A stretch of DNA of 64,000 nucleotides from a virus (Duplodnaviria; Caudoviricetes). Every line of letters begins with the position of its first letter. Within the stretch, counting starts at the first letter, position 1. The notes beneath the pieces are model-generated. The model ran no database searches, was not told the origin of the DNA, and saw only the letters and a program-made list of their open reading frames with translations. The stretch lies in IMG/VR virus record IMGVR_UViG_3300047539_000055. One strand, written 5' to 3'. Shown piece by piece: positions 2,052 through 48,089 of this stretch. A program made the translations under genes and the position numbers.

Positions 2052-3185
2052 ATGTCCAGTTCTATAAAAATTAGTCAACTTCCATTTGCTCCGTCTTTAT
2101 CAAATGTGGCTATTTTTCCGCTTGTTCAAAATTCAATAACAGAAAAAGCCACAATTGCACAGCTTGCCGGTTTTCTTAATGGACAGATTGGTGGTGCGCA
2201 AGGACCACAAGGAAACCAAGGTAATACTGGTGGACCGCAAGGTTTCCAAGGAAACCAAGGAAACCAAGGCAACCAAGGTACTGGAAATCAAGGAACTCAA
2301 GGAAATCAAGGAGCATCTGTCCACGGATCACAAGGTAATAATGGTGCGACAGGATTACAAGGAGTCCCTGGAACACAAGGAGTTCAAGGAGTTCAAGGAG
2401 GCCAAGGAAGCCAAGGAAATCAATCCAGCGTTCAAGGCAATCAAGGAAATCAAGGAAATCAAGGCATTCAAGGCGCTGGATTCCAAGGCACGCAGGGATC
2501 ACAAGGAAATCAAGGCAATCAAGGAACTTCTGTTCAAGGAACACAAGGTCCACAAGGTTCTGGATATCAAGGTTTTCAAGGAAATCAAGGAAATAACGGA
2601 ACGCAAGGCAATCAAGGTATTCAAGGCGCGGGATTCCAAGGCAATCAAGGAAACACTGGAACACAAGGAAATCAAGGCATTCAAGGCGCTGGATTTCAAG
2701 GCAACCAAGGCAATCAAGGAAATCAAGCAAGCAACGGAGCGCAAGGAAATCAAGGCATTCAAGGTGCTGGTTTCCAAGGAAGCCAAGGAAATCAAGGTGA
2801 CCAAGGTGGTGCTGGAACTCAAGGTAATACTGGCCCACAAGGAACTCAAGGATTACAAGGCAATCAAGGCAATCAGGGAATCCAAGGCACTCAAGGATTA
2901 CAAGGCACTCAAGGCACTCAAGGATTACAAGGAACTCAAGGCAATCAAGGCAATCAAGGAGTTGGACATATTATTGTATTGGCTAATGCTTCACCTTCAT
3001 CGCCTGGTCCATTTGTTGTAGGACACACTTTAGGCTCTGCTCCCGAAGCAGTTGCAATTACAATGATTACCGGCGGCCAGATTTGGCTAAATACTGCTAA
3101 TATTTCTATTGGGTATGATTCGGCCAATATTTATTGTGTTGCATCAGATGCTAATGTTGCAGCACGCATTTATGTATGGAGTTAA
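2052..3185 (+). CDS. collagen-like (Gly-X-Gln) fibre protein
   Basis: long G-x-Q triplet repeat; N-terminal IKISQLP motif typical of phage fibre proteins; late promoter. Confidence 0.8.
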   Translation: MSSSIKISQLPFAPSLSNVAIFPLVQNSITEKATIAQLAGFLNGQIGGAQGPQGNQGNTGGPQGFQGNQGNQGNQGTGNQGTQGNQGASVHGSQGNNGATGLQGVPGTQGVQGVQGGQGSQGNQSSVQGNQGNQGNQGIQGAGFQGTQGSQGNQGNQGTSVQGTQGPQGSGYQGFQGNQGNNGTQGNQGIQGAGFQGNQGNTGTQGNQGIQGAGFQGNQGNQGNQASNGAQGNQGIQGAGFQGSQGNQGDQGGAGTQGNTGPQGTQGLQGNQGNQGIQGTQGLQGTQGTQGLQGTQGNQGNQGVGHIIVLANASPSSPGPFVVGHTLGSAPEAVAITMITGGQIWLNTANISIGYDSANIYCVASDANVAARIYVWS

Positions 3186-8181: not shown

Positions 8182-8275
8182 AGCCCTATAGTTTAACGGC
8201 AGAACAGCGGCCTTATAACCCGTATTAGCATTAGATAGATGCATTGTCTCAGTTCGAATCTGAGTGGGGCTACCA
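8182..8275 (+). tRNA. tRNA with UAU anticodon (nominally Ile) and long variable arm
   Basis: acceptor AGCCCTA/TGGGGCT-A-CCA, loop CT-TAT-AA, T-arm ctcag-TTCGAAT-ctgag, ~24 nt variable arm. Confidence 0.85.
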
Positions 8276-8293
8276 AAAATAAGAAAGGTTGTT

Positions 8294-8506
8294 ATGAAGG
8301 GTTATTTAACAATATTATTTGCTATTGGAGCAGTCATTAATAGTTTTGTACTGGCGTGGCTTAGTTCAATGCATAATGTGTGGTTTGCTACTTGGTGGTA
8401 TAATACAGCATTAGGTTGGGTGGGATTTTTAACATTTACTTGTGGAACTACTGCTATTATCCGATTTTTAATGTGGCTTGATCCTATGATGTGTGATGAT
8501 AAATAA
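8294..8506 (+). CDS. small membrane protein
   Basis: AAAGG RBS; two hydrophobic segments; lies between tRNAs. Confidence 0.55.
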   Translation: MKGYLTILFAIGAVINSFVLAWLSSMHNVWFATWWYNTALGWVGFLTFTCGTTAIIRFLMWLDPMMCDDK

Positions 8507-8514
8507 TTATATGT

Positions 8515-8589
8515 GGGCGTGTCGTCCAACGGATAGGACCACAATCTTCTAAATTGAAAATGCAGGTTCGATTCCTGCCATGCCTACCA
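8515..8589 (+). tRNA. tRNA-Arg(UCU)
   Basis: GGGCGTG/CATGCCT-A-CCA, loop CT-TCT-AA, gcagg-TTCGATT-cctgc. Confidence 0.9.
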
Positions 8590-8603
8590 AATTAGCTCCA
8601 TTA

Positions 8604-8678
8604 GCTCCATTAGTTCAACGGATAGAACACTGGTCTTCGGAACCAGCTATGAGGGTTCAAATCCTTCATGGAGTACCA
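8604..8678 (+). tRNA. tRNA-Arg(UCG)
   Basis: GCTCCAT/ATGGAGT-A-CCA, ctggt-CT-TCG-GA-accag, gaggg-TTCAAAT-ccttc. Confidence 0.92.
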
Positions 8679-20299: not shown

Positions 20300-20500
20300 A
20301 TGGCAAGCAAAATTCGTAAACCTGGAAAGTTTAGTAAGGTCACAGCAGTAAAGTTGAACGCTCGTGATCAAGTGGGTACGCCTAAAGCGTCCTTCGCAAT
20401 TACACCAAAAAACCAGCGTGAGCCGCGTTACAAGGAATCGTGGCAGGATTACGCTGATTCTGAATTTGAAGACTTGAAGGAAGATTTGGAAAAGTTATGA
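20300..20500 (+). CDS. hypothetical basic protein
   Basis: AAGGA RBS; ends DLEKL. Confidence 0.55.
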   Translation: MASKIRKPGKFSKVTAVKLNARDQVGTPKASFAITPKNQREPRYKESWQDYADSEFEDLKEDLEKL

Positions 20501-20674: not shown

Positions 20675-20830
20675 ATGAGGCACTGGAATATAAATGGTGC
20701 TGGGCGCTATTGGATATTATTATCGTGGTATACTGATCGTGAAAATTGGCCAGATGGCATTACAAAAAAATTCTTTACATCTGAGCAAGAAGCCATCGCG
20801 GTAATGGTTTTGGAAAAGTTGGAAAGCTGA
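20675..20830 (+). CDS. small protein ending FTSEQEAIAVMVLEKLES (tail family A)
   Basis: hand-translated 51-aa ORF. Confidence 0.6.
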   Translation: MRHWNINGAGRYWILLSWYTDRENWPDGITKKFFTSEQEAIAVMVLEKLES

Positions 20831-22238: not shown

Positions 22239-22634
22239 CTATAGAGAAAAGAACTGATTTTCAAAAGTAAATTTTTCTTGAATTTGTTGAGGATTGTATC
22301 GTCCATTTCTTAGCGTAACTTTTTTGTATTCGGCAAGTATTAATTCTGCCCTACGTTTCTTTTTTGGTTCTAATAAAAATGGAGTAATTTGTTCTAAGCA
22401 AGATATGGCAGCATCATAATGAAGTTTCCAAGACCATGATGGTTTGTGATGTTTCTTGTAAATTTTATGTGAACTAATAGAACCACCAAAAGTGGTTTTC
22501 ATAAATTGTAATAGTTCGTAAGTAGTATTTGATATTTCAATAACTGGGTGACGAAAGGTTTCGTTTTTGTTTGCTTTTAAAAGCGAAATACTTCCCTCAC
22601 CATCAATTAAACCAGCAGCGTAAGCATTTTTCAT
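22239..22634 (-). CDS. single-motif LAGLIDADG homing endonuclease
   Basis: AYAAGLIDGEGSI; GGAG RBS; CTAAATA late promoter. Confidence 0.88.
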   Translation of the reverse strand: MKNAYAAGLIDGEGSISLLKANKNETFRHPVIEISNTTYELLQFMKTTFGGSISSHKIYKKHHKPSWSWKLHYDAAISCLEQITPFLLEPKKKRRAELILAEYKKVTLRNGRYNPQQIQEKFTFENQFFSL

Positions 22635-22699: not shown

Positions 22700-23036
22700 T
22701 TAACAGTCGAAAGACTGAAACGCTCGTGAAAGGAGACAACCTCTATATATATTCGGACGTGACTAGCATTATGTCACCGGATCCACCAAATTTTTGATTT
22801 ATGTTTAGACACGAATTGTCTATACGGGTCCGACAAGATTCGACGGGTATATAAACGGGAAGTTACGAGCCAGGTTGTGGTACTCGCCCCTGTAAAAAGG
22901 AGAGAACTATTTATAATCGCTAACTCTGTTAACGATGGCACGGAAGTTTACACACACAGTGTAAAAATCCGTGTGCCAGTAATGGCGTAAGCCAGTACTC
23001 CGCAGCGTGGCCCCGACTGTGTAAAAGAAACGGGGC
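22700..23036 (+). ncRNA. ssrA: circularly permuted (two-piece) tmRNA
   Basis: 3' acceptor CGGATCC-A-CCA ends at 22788, upstream of 5' end GGGTCCGACAAGATTCGACGGG at 22826; G3:U70 pair; tag frame 22919-22990 ANSVNDGTEVYTHSVKIRVPVMA*; outer ends approximate. Confidence 0.85.
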
Positions 23037-23046
23037 AACTACTTTT

Positions 23047-23214
23047 ATGAAACGAGAAATCACATTCGAAATTAAAAAATATGAGCAGTTTTTCAATAAT
23101 CAGTGGATTGTTTGGAAAATTGATAACGCCGCTTCAGATCGGGAATTTCTTGGAAGATTTGACACCGAGCAACTAGCAGAACAATTTGTAATGTTGAAAA
23201 AGTTGGAACAATGA
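23047..23214 (+). CDS. small protein ending FDTEQLAEQFVMLKKLEQ (tail family A)
   Basis: hand-translated 55-aa ORF. Confidence 0.6.
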   Translation: MKREITFEIKKYEQFFNNQWIVWKIDNAASDREFLGRFDTEQLAEQFVMLKKLEQ

Positions 23215-23483
23215 ATCTTTCCGAAATGAAATTACCGATTATCAATAAAGTTTTTTCGGAACTGATCTTTGCTGATATTTATGGTATACAACCAATGACA
23301 AAATTAGTGGGAACAAAAATAACGTATCATTGGAGCATTAAGGGGTATGAACATCAATGGATGCTTATACGAGAAGAAATTCATCCAATATTTTCATTGT
23401 TAAGTCCAATGCCAATTTATAGAATATTTGACACCGAGCAAGAAGCAATTGAAGCGATGGTTTTAGAAAAGTTGGAATACTAA
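23211..23483 (+). CDS. small protein: gp23-like N-terminal fragment plus tail FDTEQEAIEAMVLEKLEY
   Basis: LIFADIYGIQPM resembles the T4 major capsid motif; family A tail. Confidence 0.65.
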   Translation: MNLSEMKLPIINKVFSELIFADIYGIQPMTKLVGTKITYHWSIKGYEHQWMLIREEIHPIFSLLSPMPIYRIFDTEQEAIEAMVLEKLEY

Positions 23484-23854
23484 TGTCAACGATACCGCAG
23501 GGCAATCAGAGAATTTCAGTAGCGTTTGGTAATCAGGGAAATGTTGCTGGCGCAATAATTACTTCTGCTGGAAGTGCATGTGTTTCACTAGGACCGCAAG
23601 GTAATCAAGGGCCACAAGGTGCGGTTGCAGTAAACATAAGCAGTAGAAAACACTGGCGTATTGAATTTAGAAAAGCACATTTTTTAAAACGATTGTGGGA
23701 TAAAGGTTATTGGGTTTTAAAAACTTGGTATGAATATGATCATGATGGTTCACCGTACATATATCCTTCATATATCTTTAATGATCAAACCAGAACTTTT
23801 GCCACAGAACAAGAAGCAATCAATGTTCAAGTATTAGAACAGTTGGAACAATAA
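23483..23854 (+). CDS. protein with short G-x-Q repeat plus family A tail
   Basis: GPQGNQGPQG; ends FATEQEAINVQVLEQLEQ. Confidence 0.6.
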   Translation: MSTIPQGNQRISVAFGNQGNVAGAIITSAGSACVSLGPQGNQGPQGAVAVNISSRKHWRIEFRKAHFLKRLWDKGYWVLKTWYEYDHDGSPYIYPSYIFNDQTRTFATEQEAINVQVLEQLEQ

Positions 23855-24057
23855 TGGAACGCGAATTTGCAAGGCCAGTCGATGATAGACTTAACAAAAT
23901 ATTTTATGAAATTCACCCGACTAAGTTTGCGTTTTGTAGAAACTGGCAATGGCAGTTGAATATATATCACGGTTTGAATGGTGGACTTAGACGATATTTG
24001 TTTAGAACAGAAGAACAAGCCGAACAATATGCAATGTTGAAAAAATTAGAAGAATAA
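23854..24057 (+). CDS. small protein, family A tail
   Basis: ends FRTEEQAEQYAMLKKLEE. Confidence 0.6.
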   Translation: MEREFARPVDDRLNKIFYEIHPTKFAFCRNWQWQLNIYHGLNGGLRRYLFRTEEQAEQYAMLKKLEE

Positions 24058-24071
24058 GAAAGTAGAAATAA

Positions 24072-24629
24072 ATGAAAATCCAATTTTTAGATTGTGAAAT
24101 GCTCTGTTGGGAAAATGGCATTGCACCGCAAGGGCAGACAAATCATATTATTCAAATCGGAATTGCAGAAGTCTCCACGGATACTTTGACAATCACGCGC
24201 AGTAAAAACTATTACATTCGTCCATCCAATCGTGATTTTGACTTGACTGATTACTGTCAGGATTTGACAGGAATTTCTAAATCATTGTTGGTTGATGAAG
24301 GTCACTACTTTCCAGAAGTTATGCAGTCCATCAAGAAACAATTTGGTGGCAATACGCCGACCTTTGCATGGGGAGATGATTATCGTCCTATTATGGAACA
24401 TTGTTTAATTTACGATGTTTCTAATCCTTGGTTAGAAATGGGAATTGATGATTTTGGTATATTATTTCGCGGTTTTTATAATATTCAGAAAAAACTTCCA
24501 CTTAAAACAGCGTTGGATAGATTACATTTGAAATTTGAAGGTTGCCCTCACAACGCAATCAATGATGCAGTTGCCTTATCCGCACTCTATATGGAAACTT
24601 GCAAGAGAGTTAGAGTCAATAAAATTTAA
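24072..24629 (+). CDS. DEDDh 3'-5' exonuclease (ERI-1/KapD-like)
   Basis: FLDCEM.CW, IIQIG, LTGI, WGDD, HNAINDA. Confidence 0.85.
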   Translation: MKIQFLDCEMLCWENGIAPQGQTNHIIQIGIAEVSTDTLTITRSKNYYIRPSNRDFDLTDYCQDLTGISKSLLVDEGHYFPEVMQSIKKQFGGNTPTFAWGDDYRPIMEHCLIYDVSNPWLEMGIDDFGILFRGFYNIQKKLPLKTALDRLHLKFEGCPHNAINDAVALSALYMETCKRVRVNKI

Positions 24630-24763: not shown

Positions 24764-25564
24764 TCAATAGCAATGATTTGAGAGGCGGCAAAATTCCGAA
24801 GTGGCATAAGGGAAATCTTCGGCTACAGATAATTTTGATTTGCAACGTTTCAAATGAAGAGTCATATTTTTATGAAAACACTCTTTTTGACAATATTTAC
24901 ATTTTTCGCGGGAGCGAGGACTTTGAACCATACCTAATTGTCTTTTTCTTTCCCAAGTATCTTTTTTCTTTTTAATGGCTTGCGCAGAAGCACAATTATT
25001 CATTGTACCGTTTTTCTTCTTAGTGGCTAAAATTTTAGCAATAATATTTGTATTATTTTCAGTTGTTCCATTTGCTCTTTTAGTTGCTAAAATTTTTTGA
25101 ACTACTAATGGAGTAAGAACATTTAGTGTACCATTTAATTTCTTTGTAGTAAGTTGTTTCGCTATAATTAATGGAGAATCATTGTTCGTGCCGTTTTTCT
25201 TTTTAGTTTCTTTACATTTCTTGATTTCTTCTTGAGTTATGGAACGACCACTATTGCCATCACCGCCCACAGTTCTATTTCTCAAACATCCAGTCCCCAA
25301 ATCAATACGACCAAATAATTGAATTAAATTTATTTCCAAGTCAAAGGAAACCAATTCTTTCATATGTTCGTATACAAATTGAATGCGATTCCGATCTTTT
25401 GGAACGGAAATTCCTTTTTGGTGTTTAGCAAATGCTCTATTGTCGAAACCTTTACCAATATAATATGGCGTCCCAGCTAATCCATTTATAGAGTCTTTTT
25501 CGCGCAGATACATATAGACATAGAATCTATTGTCTTGGTGAAATGTAATGGGATAAATATTCAT
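24764..25564 (-). CDS. free-standing GIY-YIG-like homing endonuclease with TKKxNGT repeats
   Basis: FYVYMYLR...PYYIGKG..RA, LRNRTVGGDG; four K..ATKK.NGT repeats; C-terminal C2HC-like finger. Confidence 0.8.
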   Translation of the reverse strand: MNIYPITFHQDNRFYVYMYLREKDSINGLAGTPYYIGKGFDNRAFAKHQKGISVPKDRNRIQFVYEHMKELVSFDLEINLIQLFGRIDLGTGCLRNRTVGGDGNSGRSITQEEIKKCKETKKKNGTNNDSPLIIAKQLTTKKLNGTLNVLTPLVVQKILATKRANGTTENNTNIIAKILATKKKNGTMNNCASAQAIKKKKDTWERKRQLGMVQSPRSREKCKYCQKECFHKNMTLHLKRCKSKLSVAEDFPYATSEFCRLSNHCY

Positions 25565-39837: not shown

Positions 39838-41187
39838 ATGGGGTATTCAGTGACCAACACCAATGAAATGAGAAAGGCCGCGCTGAGTGTTATGTCTACA
39901 CTCACTAAGGCAGGTTTTGTCTCCTATATGGTTGGCGGTTGCGTTCGTGATACTCTGCTTGGCAAGGAGCCAAAGGATTTTGACGTAACCACCAATGCTA
40001 CTCCCGATCAGGTTGCTGCACTTTTCAACAACTCTGCTTTCGTTGGTGCACATTTTGGTGTGAGCCTTGTAAAGTTTGAGGATGCTGATGTGGAAGTTGC
40101 TACTTTTCGCCGTGATGGTGAATATAGCGACAATCGCCGCCCTGACTCTGTTGAATTGACTTTGGATGTTCGCGAAGATGTTACTCGCCGCGATTTTACT
40201 GTCAATGCTCTGTTGATGGACGAAAACGGAAATGTGGTTGATCATGTTAACGGTTTGGTTGACTTGAACAATCGCGTTCTGCGTTGCGTTGGAAATCCTG
40301 ATGATCGTTTTAATGAGGATTCTCTGCGAATGCTTCGCGCAGTTCGTTTCTGTGCCATGCACGAATTTGTGCTTGAGTCTGATACTTTCAATGCGATAGT
40401 TCGTAACGCACATCTTGTCAAGAATGTCAGCGCAGAACGTGTTGCTGGCGAATTGTCCAAGATGCTTGTCAGCGGTCATGCCGATGTTGCTTTTGATCTT
40501 CTGTTGGAAACTGGTTTGGCAAAGTTTGTAATGCCTGAACTCTGTGACTTTGTAGGTTGTGAGCATAACTCCAGCTTTCACCCCGAAGGCGATGTTGCGA
40601 ACCATGTTCGTCTCTTGCTTGCTGGTTTGGAAAAGGGTTGCTCTTTGACTCTTGCATTGGCAGTTTTGCTGCACGATGTGGCGAAGCCGCGTACTCGTGG
40701 CGTTACTAAGGAAGGTAAGACTCATTTTCGTGGTCACGAAAATGTTGGCGCTGATATGGCAAAGGACATACTGCATCGTTTGAAGTTTTCTAACGATGTT
40801 ACCGATGTTGTTGTCAATCACGTAAAGAACCATATGAAGTTTTTCGTTGCGCGTCAGATGAAGCGTAGCACTCTTATGCGTTTCTTGCGTTTGCCGAACT
40901 TTGCTGAACTTCTGGCACTTGGCAAGTTGGACGTTGGAGCCTCTAACAAGGATTTCAGCGATGTTGAATTTGTTGAGCGTTTTTTGAAGGAACACGGTGA
41001 TGAACTGACTCGTGAACGATTTGTAAATGGTGACGACTTGATAGCGATGGGTTTTGTTCCTGGTCCTAACTTCAAGGTGTTGCTTGAGCAGGTTGAAACT
41101 GAGCAGTTTGAAAATCGCTTGACTACTCGTGAGGCCGCGCTGAATTTTGTTCGTGCGCGGTCACCACGGCGAGAAAAGAGAAAGTGA
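39838..41187 (+). CDS. cca: CCA tRNA nucleotidyltransferase / poly(A) polymerase family, with HD domain
   Basis: VGGCVRD.LLG..PKDFDV, RRDFTVNA, EDSLRMLRAVRF, LLHDVAK. Confidence 0.88.
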   Translation: MGYSVTNTNEMRKAALSVMSTLTKAGFVSYMVGGCVRDTLLGKEPKDFDVTTNATPDQVAALFNNSAFVGAHFGVSLVKFEDADVEVATFRRDGEYSDNRRPDSVELTLDVREDVTRRDFTVNALLMDENGNVVDHVNGLVDLNNRVLRCVGNPDDRFNEDSLRMLRAVRFCAMHEFVLESDTFNAIVRNAHLVKNVSAERVAGELSKMLVSGHADVAFDLLLETGLAKFVMPELCDFVGCEHNSSFHPEGDVANHVRLLLAGLEKGCSLTLALAVLLHDVAKPRTRGVTKEGKTHFRGHENVGADMAKDILHRLKFSNDVTDVVVNHVKNHMKFFVARQMKRSTLMRFLRLPNFAELLALGKLDVGASNKDFSDVEFVERFLKEHGDELTRERFVNGDDLIAMGFVPGPNFKVLLEQVETEQFENRLTTREAALNFVRARSPRREKRK

Positions 41188-43337
41188 TGACAGTCGGTGA
41201 TTATTTTGAATGTAAAACAATTGTTAATGATGGCTGTAAAAATATAACTAACGTTGGAACATTAGTAGGTATTTTTGGTGAAGGACTACTAATGATTCAG
41301 ACGGAAAAATTTTTACTTCATTTTGAAAAGAAAGATTGCCGCAAAATGTCCGATGGTGAAGCAATGCTTGCGAAATTGGAGAGTGAGTAATGAAAATCGG
41401 TGATTATGTAATGGTTAGATTTTCAGCCATGGATATTTCTTTTGGTAAGATTATTGAGGTAGGATCGCGGAAGACAAGGATGGATAGTAGAAGTATTATT
41501 AGAGTTGAATTAATCAATGACCACGATGGCGTCGATCCAAGATATAAAGTACCACCTGAGTATCTAACAGTATTGACTGATGAAGAAGCGATGCTCAAGC
41601 GATTGGAGTATTAGAATGAAAGTCGGTGATTTTGTAATAGTTAAGTTTCGACAAGATGATATTTGCTTTGCGAAAATTATTGAACTGAGTTCATCTCAAA
41701 ATATTCTGGTTAAATTAATTGGGGATGATCCAAAAAATTACGAATTAACGGTTGGACTAAGTATGGTAACAGTATTGACTGATGAAGAGGCGATGCTCAA
41801 GCGATTGGAGTATTCAGAATGACCACTACACCAAAAATCGGTGATTATATCACGGCTGATATACCTGCTCATGGCAGTGTGAAAGCATTTCATATGTTTG
41901 GTCAATTGTCATCAATTTTGGATAAAAAAGAGTATATGTTCATATTTATCGTTACCGATTTTAAAAACCATGATCATCGAGTTGGTTTTTTAGAAAACGA
42001 ATTGATAATCCTTTCTGATGAACAGGCAATGTTACATATGTTGGAGGCCGAATAATGAAAGTTGGTGATTATGTTATTACATATAGCCGTACTAATGATG
42101 ATATTGTCCATTTGGATCACATAGTTGCCTGTGGTGTTGCTACAGAGTTTGGTGCTGATACCACAGTAATTGTGAAGGATCGTTTTGGAAATAAAGATTG
42201 TGCTTATATCGACAGAGCCGAAAAAATTGATGAAGGTCGTTATATGTTATGGATGTTGGAGAACTAATGAAAGATGTAAACAATAACGAACTCCATGTTG
42301 GCGATTATGTCAAATTCAAGCACCCAAACGCAATTGACTTTACTATGAGTGCTAGAAACGGTATTATTATAAAAATTAACCAAAACCAAAACCTAATAGA
42401 AATTAACCAATACCTATCTGATGGTGTTGTAATTGATGAATATGGAGATGGAAAAATTTGGAAAATTCCATCAAACGTTCAGCTTATGACTGATGGTGAA
42501 ATAATGCTGTATATGTTGGAGAACTAATGAAAAATACCTTACAAAACGGTGATTGGGCCAAATTTGAAGATTTGATGTTTGTAAAAGTGGTGCAGGTTAA
42601 CCTTAATAATGTCAAAATTTCTTATAAAGGCACTGAATATCTAATTCAAAAGGAGAAGCTTAAAAAAGCAACTGATGGCGATCTGATGTTGTGGAAACTT
42701 GAACATCCAGACGAGAAGATTGGAAGCTAATATGACAGACAAAAATGGAAGCAAACTTGAAATTGGCGATGTGATTTATTTTGCGTTCAAAAAATTATCA
42801 AAGGAAGTTTATATCATCAATAATATATCTCGGCAACCTACTTGGCAACCTATTGAATGGGCGGAAATTCGTAACAATCATTATGGTACAATGTGGCAAG
42901 CTGGCTGTGATATTGAAAAATTATCTGATGGGAAGGCAATGCTATGGATGTTGGAAAACTAAGGAGAATTGAAATGAAAACTAAACTAAAAGTTGGCGAT
43001 TACATAAAAAATACTAATGCCGAAGGTAAAGTTATTGGCAAACTCGTAAACATCCACGAATTAGATGATGATGATACTGTTTACTGCCCGGCAGAATGCC
43101 AGACCGATAATTGGATGATATATCCGATTGAATTCGTAGAAAAGGCAACAGACGAAGAAGCAATGCTGTTTATGTTGGAAAACTAAAGGAGAACGATATG
43201 AAAAAGATTATTGGGAAAGATATCAACGGCGAAATCATTAGAGAAGGCGATTTTATGACTCATAAAACAAAAGGATTTGTTATATGGACAAGAAATCAAC
43301 AAGAGAAGCATATGTTTTATGGATGCTTGAAAACTAA
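41184..43337 (+). repeat. tandem array of about 10 small KVGD (KOW/SH3-like) ORFs ending (S/T)DEEAML.MLE (tail family D)
   Basis: 41184-41390, 41390-41614, 41616-41822, 41819-42055, 42055-42267, 42267-42527, 42527-42730, 42732-42962, 42974-43186, plus a broken copy at 43198-43337. Confidence 0.85.
43198..43337 (+). pseudogene. internally deleted, frameshifted family D member
   Basis: starts KDINGEIIREGD; tail KKSTREAYVLWMLEN* lies in the -1 frame ending at 43337. Confidence 0.65.
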
Positions 43338-43368
43338 CGCAATTCTAACCGAACTAAAGGAGACTGAA

Positions 43369-43701
43369 ATGAAAAAAAGAGCATTTGATCCGAACAAAGA
43401 TTTATATTGGCGTGATAAAGACACTGAAGAGGTTGTATATGTTGAGCAAGATGGAAAGTGGGTTCTTGCCCCGCACAAAGAAACCGACGAAGAGTTTGTC
43501 AAAAAACTATATCCCGAAGCAAGGCTGGAACTGGTTCATTATTTGCCTCCTGCCAGAGATAATTTTTATCAATATCAAATAAATCTTGAACCCGAAGCAC
43601 GAAAGCAAAATCATACAAGCAGGGGCAGACATCCGATCAAGGAATGGACTAAAGCCAGAAATAAGATTGACAGAGAAATTCGGAAAAAGTTTGAAAACTA
43701 A
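43369..43701 (+). CDS. hypothetical protein
   Basis: strong AAGGAG RBS before ATG 43369; ends IRKKFEN. Confidence 0.6.
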   Translation: MKKRAFDPNKDLYWRDKDTEEVVYVEQDGKWVLAPHKETDEEFVKKLYPEARLELVHYLPPARDNFYQYQINLEPEARKQNHTSRGRHPIKEWTKARNKIDREIRKKFEN

Positions 43702-43732
43702 CGCAACAATAACCGAACTAAAAGGAGACAAT

Positions 43733-43954
43733 ATGAAGACGCAAAAGTTCAACAATTTTAGATATGTTCAAGAATTTTATTTTGATAAGGCTATAACCCT
43801 TGAAGAAATGAAAAAGCGATCCGCAGATTGGGAAGACGATTTATGGACGCCTTGGGCAGATAACAACATAAAAGGGGTGGAGATCACAGCGATGGCTTGG
43901 TTTGAAAGTGTAAAACCAGGCGAAGAACGAGCAAAAAATACAAAGGAGAACTAA
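43733..43954 (+). CDS. hypothetical protein
   Basis: AAGGAG RBS. Confidence 0.55.
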   Translation: MKTQKFNNFRYVQEFYFDKAITLEEMKKRSADWEDDLWTPWADNNIKGVEITAMAWFESVKPGEERAKNTKEN

Positions 43955-43955
43955 A

Positions 43956-44168
43956 ATGAGTGATTGGGAAGAACGTAAGTCGTTATTGAAAATAATGCTT
44001 GCCGAAATTGAAGCCGATGAATTGGCAAAAAAGCCGAAGCGTGGCAGACCGCCATTATACACTAAAGATGAAATCAAGGAACGCGTTCGACAGCAACGCA
44101 AGAAGTGTTGGGATAAACACGCGAAACAATATTACGAGAATCGACGTAAGAAACTGAAGGAGGTCTAA
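43956..44168 (+). CDS. small basic protein with AT-hook
   Basis: KPKRGRPP; AAGGAG RBS. Confidence 0.6.
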   Translation: MSDWEERKSLLKIMLAEIEADELAKKPKRGRPPLYTKDEIKERVRQQRKKCWDKHAKQYYENRRKKLKEV

Positions 44169-44169
44169 A

Positions 44170-44466
44170 ATGGAAGTCCTGACTTGGATATGGGCAATGT
44201 TTTGGATATTTGTAGCAATACTGATTATACTGCTTATAGGATTGTCTATAGTATCCTACGCAATCAAGAAAATCAAAAAACCGCAACCGATAATCAAGAA
44301 AATCAAAAAACCGGTCAAAAAGCCGATCAAAATGAAGGAGGAAACGAGCGGGCTTGTTAGACTGCTCAAGATGATCGTAAAATTCGTATTGTGTTGGTGG
44401 TTGTTTTGTTTGTTGTTTTGGGGAATAGCAATTGTCCTGGTTGCGGCCTTCACTCTTATCAACTAA
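44170..44466 (+). CDS. membrane protein with IKKIKKP repeat
   Basis: two TM helices around a duplicated basic loop; GGAGG RBS. Confidence 0.6.
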   Translation: MEVLTWIWAMFWIFVAILIILLIGLSIVSYAIKKIKKPQPIIKKIKKPVKKPIKMKEETSGLVRLLKMIVKFVLCWWLFCLLFWGIAIVLVAAFTLIN

Positions 44467-44491
44467 ATCAAATATTTGGTGTAAAGAACCG

Positions 44492-46021
44492 ATGGAAAAC
44501 AATTTTGACAAGAAAGGAGTGGGTATTTTTAAAAAAGGTTATGAAAATAGTTCGCACGTTTTCATAGCAGTGGTGGACTTAATTTGGCCAGAGCGTGTTT
44601 CTGATTATGGAAAATATTCACAAAACATTCGTTGTATGACAGATGGTGAAGAAATGTTATGGATGCTGGAGAACAAATGAAAGACATAAATGACACTCCG
44701 TTAAAAATTGGAGATTATGTTGAATTTCGAACAAGCGGTGCATTATATTCAGTTTTTGCTACACCATTTGATAAATTTGGTATTATTGAAGAAGATGTCG
44801 GGAGCATGATTAGAAGTAGATATATTGTTAATGGTGTCAGTCGTACTCAAGCAAAATATCCTGGAAATTTGCGTAAATTAACTGACATTAGCAAAATTAT
44901 GTTGCTCATACTGGAGAACTAATGAACGATTTTTATTTTGATGTAAATGGAAATGAAATTGTATTTGGCGATCTTGTTTGGTTTCAAGATAGTACAAATT
45001 TTCATGCCGTTGGAAAATTTGAAAGTAAATGTAAATGTGAAGCGTATACGGATGAAGAGCGTGCCTGGTTTCATATATCTTTTACTAACGCGACAACACA
45101 GCATAGAACATTGGAAGGAATAAAACGAATCCCTGATACACATTTGATGTTGATAAAATTTGAAAGCTAATATGAGCCAAATACTAAAAGTCGGGGACTA
45201 TGTAAGATACGATGCCAGCAATGGTACGTTACCACCATTGATTGGTAAAATAGTTGCGCGAGATGAAAGAAAGCATTATTGGAATGTACGTTACCACCTT
45301 GATATACTTCCATCACAAAGTAAATATCTTACTAAAATGAGCAACGAAGACGCGATGCTGTATATTTTGGAAAATAATGGAACAAAAATTTAAAGTCGGT
45401 GATTATGTAAAATACGGTGTCCGTGATGGAAAGGGATATAGCGCTCTGGCTAAAATTGTTTGTAAAGATGATGAAATTTTTTCAGGCTGGCAGACTTGGA
45501 GAATATCATTTGTTACTGATGCTAATGATGTTTCCTATCCAACATCAGAAACATATATTACTAAACTTTCAGATGATGAAGCAATGATATGGATGTTGGA
45601 GCTATAATGGAAAACTTCAAAGCCGGAGACTTCGCAAAATTTGATTGTACTGATGGAAGGTCACCCGGATTTCTTGTTAAAATTCTTAGTAAGGATCGTG
45701 TAGATAATATGATGTATGATGCATGGAAGGTAAAATATAAAGGGCGAGAGTATGGTTACATAATGGAAAAACATCTTACCAAAATGACAGACGAAGAAGC
45801 AATGTTGATGATGTTTGAGGAGCAATATGAAAGTCGGTGATTTTGTCAAATATGATGTCAAGGGTACTATGGTGCATGTTGGTAGATTGATTGAATACAA
45901 ACCAACAGTGAATTATTGGATGGTATTTTATTTTCAGCCACAATGCATTCTTCCATCACTGCCTGAATTCCTTACTAAAATGAGCGATGAAGAAGCCATG
46001 TTGTATATGTTTGAAAAATAA
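44492..46021 (+). repeat. tandem array of 7 family D small ORFs
   Basis: 44492-44680, 44677-44922, 44922-45170, 45172-45393, 45377-45607, 45607-45840, 45827-46021; KVGDYV starts and ..EEAML..(L/F)E ends. Confidence 0.85.
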
Positions 46022-46085
46022 GGACTTAGAATAATCTTGACTTTTGGGCATAAATTTGGTATACTGTATTTGTAGTCGAGAGGGA
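46007..46085 (+). promoter_or_regulatory. early promoter cassette with IHF-like site
   Basis: tttgaaaaataaggacttag; TTGACT(46037)-17-TATACT; tttgtagtcgagaggg. Confidence 0.7.
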
Positions 46086-46088
46086 ACA

Positions 46089-46484
46089 ATGAGTACTCGT
46101 AGCGCAATTCTTGAAAAGACGGATTCTGGTTATCGTGGAATCTATTGTCATTCAGATGGTTATGTTACAGGTGTCGGCAAAATGCTTGTCGAAAATTTTA
46201 CTGACCCTGCAAAGGTATCTGCGCTTATTGATCTTGGTGATATTAGTTATCTTGAGGAAAATCTTGTTCCGACAGAATTTCATTCATTTGACAAGCCACA
46301 AGAAGGCGTTGTCGTAGCTTATGGCCGTGATCGTGGTGAAACAGGCACGAAAGCGGTTCGAGGAAAAACCATCAAAGCAGTTGCGAAAAAGATTGATCAC
46401 GCATATTTGTATGTTTTTGAGGATGGTCATTGGTCGGTAGACGGGAAATCAATAGATGCCCTGCTACTTAAGTTGGAGTCATGA
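46089..46484 (+). CDS. conserved hypothetical phage protein (IYCHSDGY family)
   Basis: MSTRS.I...IYCHSDGY...VG..L; ends LLLKLES. Confidence 0.7.
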   Translation: MSTRSAILEKTDSGYRGIYCHSDGYVTGVGKMLVENFTDPAKVSALIDLGDISYLEENLVPTEFHSFDKPQEGVVVAYGRDRGETGTKAVRGKTIKAVAKKIDHAYLYVFEDGHWSVDGKSIDALLLKLES

Positions 46485-46650
46485 TGTTGATTGTTATGCT
46501 CATATGTGCTGGATTATTGATTTGGTCAGTTATCCATGAAATTCGTGACATACGCAAAAAGGAATTCCTCGCAAAGTTAATGGATTGCGAATATGTCCAA
46601 ATTGGGTATGGAGATTATTTCATACCCAAAAATTGAAAAGGAGAATCAAA

Positions 46651-47022
46651 ATGGCATTGGAAAATTTAGGTAGTTTCACAGGTTCAGAAAATTTTCACCG
46701 CAATGGAATGAATCGCAGGTTCATTTATACCGATGGCGCTAAGTATGTTGCCGATGAAGCTGGTGCATATTGGCTCATTGATGATATCGCGATTGCGAAC
46801 GCATTTGACCAGAATCTAAAGGGCGAAGAGTTTCAGACTTGGACTCTCACGAAGACAGGAAACTCCGCGACCCTTATTGCCACTGACGGCAATGATAGGG
46901 TTTTGTATTCCAAGGGAATTGAGTACACTGATTTTCCGTTGGAATCCATCAAGTTTTATGTGGTTTCCGCCGAAGATTTTGGTGTGAACCATTTGATGCT
47001 GATGTTGCCTAGCGAATACTAA
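46651..47022 (+). CDS. DUF6876-like protein
   Basis: YTDGAKYVA..AGAYWL.D.I...IEYTDFPL...LMLPSEY. Confidence 0.7.
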   Translation: MALENLGSFTGSENFHRNGMNRRFIYTDGAKYVADEAGAYWLIDDIAIANAFDQNLKGEEFQTWTLTKTGNSATLIATDGNDRVLYSKGIEYTDFPLESIKFYVVSAEDFGVNHLMLMLPSEY

Positions 47023-47023
47023 A

Positions 47024-47242
47024 ATGACAGAAACCAGAAAAATCCCGAACAAAAAGCCTCTTCGTGAATTGGTAGCTCGTGCTATATATGCAAGTCAAGG
47101 GTGTCCTATTGATTCCGCTGGTGTGTGGTATGAAATCGTCAATGACAAGAAAGTAGTTATGGACGGCTTTGAAAAGTGGTATGTAATGGCCGACGCTGCG
47201 ATCAAGGCAGTCAGAAAGTACAATAGAAAGCGTGGCAGATAA
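47024..47242 (+). CDS. hypothetical protein
   Basis: coupled ORF; VARAIY...ADAAI. Confidence 0.5.
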   Translation: MTETRKIPNKKPLRELVARAIYASQGCPIDSAGVWYEIVNDKKVVMDGFEKWYVMADAAIKAVRKYNRKRGR

Positions 47243-47327
47243 TGTTTGATCATCGTTATCATCTTGCCTTGGATAAGGTATTTCCGATTCTGAACCAGGT
47301 TCCAGAACCGCCAAAGGAATTGAGATA

Positions 47328-47528
47328 ATGACAGCCCATTTTAGTTTTGAAGCCACAATAGGATTTCGTAAAGAGATAAGGGATTTTCTATTGCGATGCA
47401 AGATGAAAAATCCCTTGATTACTTTTGACGAATCAAAGGGTTTTTTAGTAAATACATTTTTTGTATGCGGTCCTGAAAAAGAGATACAGAACATTTATGA
47501 CGTTCTTGATGGATGGAACAAAAATTGA
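47328..47528 (+). CDS. hypothetical protein
   Basis: 66-aa ORF. Confidence 0.45.
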   Translation: MTAHFSFEATIGFRKEIRDFLLRCKMKNPLITFDESKGFLVNTFFVCGPEKEIQNIYDVLDGWNKN

Positions 47529-47665
47529 GACGTGCCAACATCATTGGCTAGTCGGAAGTCTAAACCGATAAAGAGAAGCGAGAGTGATACTCGTAAAACA
47601 CGGACGCTGGAGAACAGGGTGGAATTTCGGGGGAGCCAACTGCTATGATCCTGCCCACCCTGCCA
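47529..47665 (+). ncRNA. candidate structured intergenic RNA
   Basis: GC-rich gap with hairpins ccaa/ttgg, tcgg/ccga, cgag/ctcg closed by cgtg/cacg, then cagggtgg/ccaccctg. Confidence 0.45.
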
Positions 47666-47680
47666 GAGAAAAGATGAATT

Positions 47681-48089
47681 ATGACTGACAAAACATTAAA
47701 AACAGGAGATATGGTTAAGATTACATTTGTCCACGGTCCTCCCCCTAGACTTGGGTGTGTTAAAGACGTTTATTCAGATACAATCATTGTAAGTTTTGAA
47801 GGTCATGGAAGTTATGGATATTTTCCTAGTATGGTTAGAAAAGTATCTGATGAAGAGGCAATGTTGATGATGTTTGAGCGATAATATGAAAAACAAAATG
47901 TTTGGAATAGGCGATATTGTTAGTGTTTCTTTTAGTCAAGTTCCTCGGCAGATTGGATGTATTTTGTATGTTGATAATCACGTAATCACTGTACGTTTTG
48001 GGGATAAAAGAACCGCTCCCTGTTTTCCTAATATGATTAGAAACGTTTCTGATGAAGTAGCAATGTTGTGGATGTTGGAGAACGCATAA
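47681..48089 (+). repeat. two paralogous family D ORFs (47681-47884, 47886-48089)
   Basis: GD.V...F...PR..GC...FP.M.R.VSDE.AML.M.E. Confidence 0.75.

Follow-up and report, generated by a model that had tools for sequence, protein, structure and literature searches.

A small jumbo-phage protein with a gp23-like peptide on a folded carrier domain: a possible mimic of conserved virion parts

Introduction

Why would a phage place a short piece of a major capsid protein (MCP) at the head of a small, separate protein? This question is raised by the open reading frame at positions 23211 to 23483 of a jumbo-phage sequence, here called ORF90, which the initial annotation had described as a capsid-protein-like fragment fused to a C-terminal tail shared with neighboring reading frames. 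The question touches on phage defense, where conserved capsid proteins are frequent triggers of bacterial immunity, with Lit, CapRel, CBASS, and Thoeris as examples.

In T4, a 29-residue region of the capsid protein gp23 defines Gol; it binds domains II/III of EF-Tu, thereby lets Lit cut EF-Tu, and inhibits the EF-Tu GTPase (PMC3014915). The Gol region forms the best conserved part of gp23, and binding to EF-Tu has been suggested for it in all phages of the T4 type (PMC3014915). Genes of the Lit family (peptidase U49) also occur outside E. coli, for instance in Bradyrhizobium (PMC9069715).

The gene and its phage

The window, that is, the whole 64-kb stretch of DNA that was analyzed, is part of a 353,395-bp JGI metagenome contig. 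Its phage is related to the group of PA5oct, Atu_ph07, and XaC1; the replicative helicase shares 44-47% identity with those of the jumbo phages Phosso, PA5oct, and Atu_ph07, and 38% with that of XaC1. At the DNA level, no close relative of the window was found in the phage collection or in IMG/VR, from which an exact 40-mer is absent. With the XaC1 capsid protein as query, no capsid gene was detected in the 64 kb, the best match there being ORF90 itself (15 of 32 residues identical, E 0.004). In the search for the phage's own capsid gene, two relatives from IMG/VR likewise gave no Gp23 match. A metagenome scan with an MCP alignment yielded 80 XaC1-like loci, contig Ga0562382_00127 not being among them.

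ORF90 (23211..23483, + strand) encodes 90 amino acids from an ATG start and is composed of an N-terminal capsid-like peptide (residues 6-34; 23226..23312) and a C-terminal beta-beta-beta-alpha carrier domain (residues 36-90; 23316..23480). The start codon overlaps the stop codon of the upstream paralog (ATGA), and the stop codon abuts the next start. Twelve contigs from samples of JGI, Logan, and ENA encode the identical protein, and orthologs with 71% (P0001) and 56% identity are found. ORF90 is a real, conserved gene for a small accessory protein of a jumbo phage.

A capsid fragment at the N-terminus

When compared with Pfam, ORF90 has a sole match, PF07068 (Gp23), with an E value of 0.011 and 15.7 bits, its residues 6-34 lying on profile positions 7-35; in PHROG, capsid families are the only matches. 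For the ortholog P0001, Gp23 is the top Pfam match as well (E 8e-4, or 1.3e-4 for the first 35 amino acids alone), and Gp23 positions 2-35 also come out on top for four further family members with less than 50% identity, namely P0014 (3.6e-4), P0023 (6.4e-3), P0020 (0.028), and P0019 (0.095). A tblastn search with ORF90 against 50,697 phage records returned mostly genes for major head or capsid proteins, while phmmer against PDB sequences found nothing relevant for either ORF90 or P0001. The hhalign comparison of a ten-member N-terminal alignment with the MCP alignment gave a probability of 96.5% (E 8e-10) and placed ORF90 residues 6-34 on residues 61-89 of the XaC1 MCP. These, in turn, correspond to T4 gp23 94-122 when XaC1 is aligned with the mature T4 protein by HMMER; the numbering was checked against A94, G97, Met98, and L106 as named in the literature (PMC9546572).

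Judged from these alignments, residues 6-34 of ORF90 are homologous to the base of the N-arm of gp23-type MCPs and equivalent to T4 gp23 94-122. The gp23-like peptide which the initial annotation had seen in this reading frame, and which it quoted from what are residues 8-34, is thus borne out, and the check it had proposed, namely, profile and BLAST comparison with gp23, revealed similarity beyond chance in Pfam, tblastn, and hhalign alike. It could still be argued that the peptide is unrelated to capsid proteins and the likeness fortuitous, considering that every single-sequence score is below the Pfam gathering threshold and that some 29 residues are aligned. This is, however, extremely improbable and already contradicted by the hhalign probability and by the fact that six family members independently match the same ~30 positions of a single family among 24,736; moreover, capsid genes predominate among the tblastn matches.

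The low scores have a simple cause, since only about 29 positions (7-35 of 376 in ORF90) can contribute to them. ORF90 attains 15.7 bits and the best family member 22, compared with a gathering cut-off of 24.4, so that ORF90 is outside PF07068 proper. Likewise, an HK97-like fold comprises about 390-520 residues, whereas the 90 residues of ORF90 are modeled by AlphaFold as a disordered peptide followed by beta-beta-beta-alpha. Because the match is limited to ~29 positions, what ORF90 carries is a fragment of a capsid protein, and it is no capsid protein itself. The family is locally homologous to the gp23-type MCPs in two conserved stretches, of which ORF90 and its orthologs have the first and the family member P0018 the second; it differs from them in that ORF90 covers about 30 of the 376 positions, without the HK97 fold and below the gathering score.

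In T4 gp23, the Gol region extends over residues which we take to be 93-122. The path from ORF90 6-34 via XaC1 61-89 to T4 94-122 ends in just this segment, and by position the ORF90 peptide would therefore be the Gol region. It resembles the Gol peptide of T4, which activates the Lit protease of e14 through EF-Tu, in its place in the alignment, in the retention of residues conserved in gp23, and in its shortness, which could allow it, like the Gol peptide, to act apart from the capsid protein. In contrast to the T4 peptide, it is encoded at the N-terminus of a small protein of its own, apparently not a late one, where it is attached to a carrier, and any action on EF-Tu or Lit is putative.

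The carrier domain and its array

The ~53 C-terminal residues of ORF90 are common to five reading frames of the window; when the family profile was run against the six-frame translations, exactly these five were recovered, with E values of 1e-21 to 1e-25. For the carrier domain of ORF90, the family HMM gave E 1e-24; against the carrier-family profile, ORF90 is matched over positions 1-55 (hmmsearch E 8e-25), and it was also recovered in the library search. The four other members are equally encoded on the + strand and were identified with the family HMM. Two consist of the domain only, one with 51 amino acids (20675..20830), situated 2.2 kb upstream of the array, and one with 55 amino acids (23047..23214), immediately preceding ORF90. 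A paralog of 123 amino acids (23483..23854) possesses an N-terminal extension of ~55 residues, and the last in the array, with 67 amino acids (23854..24057), occupies the array position of P0018. Altogether, two to three of the five paralogs are made up of the domain alone or of the domain with a short unassigned N-terminus.

According to AlphaFold, the carrier fold, best seen in the 55-residue paralog (pLDDT 91), consists of three antiparallel strands and a C-terminal helix, which is amphipathic in ORF90. In ORF90, confidence is mostly high for residues 36-90, with means of 69-98 for blocks of ten residues from residue 31 onward; when the family alignment is supplied, pLDDT stays below 50 for residues 1-32, where a helix is tentatively placed at 10-23. 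Since a low-confidence peptide stands beside a confidently modeled domain, ORF90 is predicted to consist of a folded carrier on which a flexible peptide is displayed. The "shared C-terminal tail" of the initial annotation is, consequently, correct as a module common to neighboring reading frames, but HMM and AlphaFold extend it to a whole folded domain of ~53 amino acids. A family held together by the tail alone was also considered and rejected, because homology within the array spans about 53 residues. The anatomy of ORF90 as described, a capsid-homologous peptide on a carrier, can be stated with high confidence.

Foldseek did not find a significant match of the carrier fold in the PDB; the best hits were dsRBD-like (probability 0.95-0.97, best E 0.12, TM 0.46-0.53). 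A dsRBD has the order alpha-beta-beta-beta-alpha, of which the first helix is absent from the carrier, and the structural matches stay at E >= 0.1. In BFVD, only uncharacterized small phage proteins were matched, with TM up to 0.83. A profile search among 1.84 billion representatives gave only 23 proteins at E<=1e-3, and the carrier-domain family, which has no name, is therefore confined to one jumbo-phage clade.

The extreme C-terminus deserves separate consideration. A tail of the type hydrophobic-L-x-x-[LFM]-E-x ends 31 of 309 reading frames on the + strand and 0 of 434 on the - strand between positions 20470 and 48089. Its Leu-Glu is nearly always written TTG-GAA or TTG-GAG; TTG makes up 23 of 25 tail Leu codons, compared with a background of 38%, and GAG 48% of tail Glu codons versus 18%. 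As these codons lie few bases, typically 5-9, before the next ATG, the tail looks like it doubles as the ribosome-binding site of the following gene. In hhalign, what the carrier family has in common with another array (41184-48089), which is marked by a G-D-Y-V motif at the N-terminus, is limited to the last nine residues, and part of the shared tail would, on this ground, probably be a translational-coupling signal. Despite this signal, the five paralogs of the window are truly homologous.

Other virion pieces on the same carrier

The N-arm motif opens at least nine of the 23 representatives and, in addition, the ortholog at locus L018. Its consensus is approximately F-P-x-I-x-x-V-F-P-S-L-I-A-x-x-I-x-G-I-Q-P-M, with I-Q-P-M being nearly invariant. 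In a relative, P0018, which shares its array with a member of the N-arm type and sits directly before the exonuclease gene, starts with a different capsid stretch. This piece matches Pfam Gp23 positions 304-333 (E 1.3e-4), is identical to XaC1 MCP 321-347 in 13 of 27 residues, and maps to T4 ~438-464, Met444 included; a tblastn search with P0018 hit 1,222 phage records, and among the matches listed all are capsid genes. When the two most conserved stretches of the MCP alignment were picked automatically, they turned out to be exactly the N-arm motif and the P0018 motif. By eye only, the last paralog of the window (23854-24057, + strand) perhaps carries a weaker trace of the second motif (R-P-V-D-D), and in P0006, its ortholog by domain, an F-I-P-L remnant of that motif is all that is retained, again by eye only.

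A third kind of piece is found in the 123-residue paralog. Its extension contains the collagen-like sequence GPQGNQGPQG, reported there by the initial annotation and located at residues 37-46, as well as a QGNQ..F.GNQGN piece, and an ortholog with the same kind of extension occurs in L016/L013. The proposed likeness to the fiber gene at 2052 holds insofar as the N-terminus aligns with the repeat of 2052-3185; the alignment is weak, of low complexity, and has an E value of 0.01. The gene at 2052-3185 (+ strand) codes for a 377-amino acid collagen-like (G-x-Q-G-N-Q) fiber protein with strong PHROG tail-fiber matches.

Genomic context

Directly upstream of the array lies a permuted (two-piece) tmRNA (22722..22990, + strand), assigned by Rfam RF04321 with 48.6 bits against a gathering score of 47; ARAGORN made no call at 22722-22990. 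In relatives, RF04321 is found at L018 843-1064 (79.5 bits), L021 2456-2704 (76.6), L020 3583-3823 (63), and L013 1227-1469 (46.5), and the position of the tmRNA directly upstream of the small-protein array is common to the window and four relatives. The tag frame of the tmRNA ends with V-M-A in the window and with L-A or V-A-A in the relatives. Directly downstream of the array, an RNase T-like 3'-5' exonuclease is encoded (24072..24629, + strand; Pfam RNase_T E 1.5e-10), which is found at the corresponding place in L018, L020, and the ERZ1426850 contig and is kept in all relatives that extend far enough. ORF90, accordingly, has the location typical of the carrier family, between tmRNA and exonuclease. 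In E. coli, RNase T trims the 3' ends of tmRNA and tRNA, and by analogy the phage enzyme may mature the adjacent tmRNA. Further neighbors code for tRNAs, RNA ligases, a DnaB-type helicase, and a tRNA nucleotidyltransferase. On the + strand at 8182-8678, there are three genes for tRNAs, with Ile-TAT, Arg-TCT, and Arg-TCG.

This setting invites the explanation that ORF90 is a translation-linked binder of EF-Tu. The Gol-equivalent peptide would tether the carrier to EF-Tu as part of a phage tmRNA module, where the protein could help to load or regulate the two-piece tmRNA or modulate EF-Tu during takeover of the host. It is textbook knowledge that EF-Tu carries tmRNA, and the array follows the permuted tmRNA and precedes the RNase T-like gene in the window and four relatives. 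The weak dsRBD-likeness of the carrier (Foldseek probability 0.95-0.97, E >= 0.1) would be compatible with such a role, as would the capacity of the T4 Gol region to bind EF-Tu domains II/III and to inhibit the GTPase (PMC3014915). The fold match is, however, not significant, with the first dsRBD helix missing; the synteny may merely reflect a shared early transcription unit; and no explanation would be given for the other pieces borne by the carrier, namely, the second capsid motif and the collagen-like ones. An EF-Tu binder is, therefore, considered unlikely.

The module is flanked on the - strand by a LAGLIDADG homing endonuclease gene (22239..22634), with TATAAATA on its own strand just upstream, and by a repeat-tailed endonuclease-like reading frame (24764-25564). 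A homolog of the latter lies between tmRNA and array in L018 (1144-1803, - strand). Amplification of anti-defense loci driven by homing endonucleases is reported in a 2026 paper (PMC13096335). On the + strand upstream of the array, the T4-type late promoter motif TATAAATA was not found, from which we infer early or middle expression of the array.

A role in capsid assembly or targeting

What the corresponding segment does in T4 opens another route of explanation. In the prohead, this segment is disordered and faces inward, L106 being the first ordered residue, while after expansion it is part of the N-arm and engages in inter-capsomer contacts; it is thought to contact the scaffold and holds the head-length mutations A94V and G97S (PMC9546572). 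Met98, beside the N-arm motif, and Met444, inside the second motif, alternate in one portal-anchoring cluster (PMC9546572). Going by the structural model, the disordered ORF90 peptide would mirror the disordered prohead state of the same T4 segment. The peptide might, then, plug into a site used by the N-arm base of the MCP, the scaffold, or the portal whiskers, so that the small protein would be brought into the prohead or assembly would be tuned. Besides the prohead location, scaffold contact, and mutations of the T4 segment, it is in favor of this idea that the two displayed pieces take part in the interfaces of one and the same region, as Met98 and Met444 take turns in one cluster.

A partial parallel is provided by the capsid-targeting sequences of T4 internal proteins, which also are short N-terminal peptides on otherwise unrelated small proteins and would suggest possible prohead targeting. 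The T4 signal is, however, a leader of ~10 amino acids that is cleaved by the prohead protease and is not derived from the capsid, whereas the ORF90 peptide copies a capsid segment and the genes are outside a late or head context. They are surrounded by RNA and translation genes, far from any head module, and lack a late promoter, and there is no capsid gene in the window. Furthermore, a collagen-like fiber piece on the same carrier does not fit, and competition with the capsid contacts of the phage itself would do harm if the dose were not tightly controlled. On balance, a capsid role is improbable.

Selection and age of the peptide

Among P0001, the 90-amino acid L018 ortholog, and P0014, the motif has pS values of 0.73-0.87, that is, saturated, and pN values of 0.21-0.35, and its codons differ synonymously at most conserved residues; here as in the dN/dS values below, the estimates rest on 20-22 codons. 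The combination of saturated synonymous sites with low pN indicates that, in these relatives, selection maintains the peptide and not the DNA. It also argues against a recent capture, given the saturation between relatives, and against ongoing gene conversion and a DNA-level copy of a target site. In 5.8 billion clusters, no longer protein was found to share three 5-residue words with the 40 N-terminal residues of ORF90 or of the L018 ortholog, which is weak evidence that the capsid piece is not a recent copy. The suggestion of the initial annotation that the tail family captures pieces of structural genes may be retained to the extent that members carry two capsid motifs and one subfamily a collagen-like piece; a recent capture is, for the reasons given, not supported.

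The idea that the capsid piece marks a site of homing-endonuclease insertion, prompted by the split gene 23 of Aeromonas phage Ah1, was considered and rejected, since the Ah1 pieces overlap in different frames and have no inserted gene. In Ah1 (L024 2202-3814), gene 23 is annotated as overlapping 23_1 and 23_2, which meet in the Gol region; this looks like a frameshift or sequencing error rather than an insertion.

The motif of ORF90 itself is drifting. A conserved Pro is lost, and dN/dS compared with P0001 is 0.6, against 0.02 in the C-terminal helix; in the ortholog P0003, the motif is largely lost. For these reasons, the peptide may be dispensable in the sublineage of the window. Such drift speaks for a neutral relic, meaning that capsid fragments were captured in-frame long ago by recombination in a region rich in homing endonucleases, that the peptide has no present function, and that only the carrier matters. 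Homing endonucleases do flank the array, the ORF90 motif evolves about 30 times faster than the helix, P0003 has lost its motif, and the domain-only paralogs are conserved. On the other hand, at least nine lineages of less than 50% identity retain the motif, with near-invariant I-Q-P-M and saturated synonymous sites; the retained residues are those conserved in real capsid proteins; and that the carrier also bears another, independent capsid piece is improbable as an accident. As an account of the family, a relic is quite unlikely, but it may nevertheless describe the window's own copy.

Proposed function

The best overall explanation, offered here tentatively and with somewhat less than even confidence, is that ORF90 is an accessory two-part protein acting as a molecular mimic of a capsid peptide. 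The peptide would bind a factor that normally recognizes this capsid segment, while the carrier domain would keep the peptide soluble and block or redirect the outcome. The likeliest partner would be a host factor sensing conserved virion peptides, either of the Lit/EF-Tu type or another capsid sensor, and ORF90 would then be a pre-emptive counter-defense decoy. A host sensor is favored because of the setting among translation and RNA genes, the lack of a late promoter, and the three kinds of virion peptide on one carrier. The initial annotation had put forward such a decoy for sensors of the CapRel or Lit type; the idea, still putative, gains plausibility from the exact correspondence of the piece to T4 gp23 94-122, the MCP stretch with the highest conservation, which a review equates with the Gol region (PMC3014915). 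Of the readings considered, a decoy alone accounts for each of the three kinds of piece that are displayed, and ORF90 and its relatives, as far as comparison of sequences goes, point to deliberate molecular mimicry of capsid parts. A decoy function in the strict sense is putative and should be regarded as possible rather than probable.

Mimics and decoys are familiar from phage counter-defense; Ocr is a phage mimic of DNA. The ICP1 protein Gp145 is an antitoxin mimic (PMC13728456). ORF90 would resemble these proteins in being a small accessory product, apparently not late, that putatively imitates a molecule recognized by the host, with the difference that it would be virion peptides of the phage itself which are imitated. 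In the reviews searched, no described case of a phage imitating its own virion peptides was found.

Several points speak against a decoy. A free Gol-like peptide would be expected to trigger a system of the Lit type rather than to block it, except if cleavage is prevented by the carrier. The strict synteny with the tmRNA and the RNase T-like gene is not explained by a decoy. Nor is the function which the carrier has of its own, seeing that two to three paralogs are the domain alone or with a short N-terminus. The drift of the ORF90 motif and the loss in P0003 may count against it as well.

Extended to the family, the decoy reading would imply that the clade encodes a panel of "virion-epitope display" proteins, which would be made before the virion proteins and would occupy or blind host factors that recognize conserved structural proteins. 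The panel would present the two most conserved capsid peptides and a fiber-like collagen piece on one carrier. This wider proposal is rather unlikely as it stands, albeit conceivable.

Concluding remarks

To our knowledge, the only described escape from capsid-triggered immunity is mutation of the capsid gene. Separate, selectable copies of the most conserved capsid peptides would amount to a different strategy, the mimicry of the phage's own structural epitopes. If true, the epitope-display panel would be the first capsid-mimic counter-defense and would provide a natural handle on binders of the Gol region. Should the decoy idea prove wrong, the family still links a capsid-derived peptide of the EF-Tu-binding type to a phage tmRNA module.
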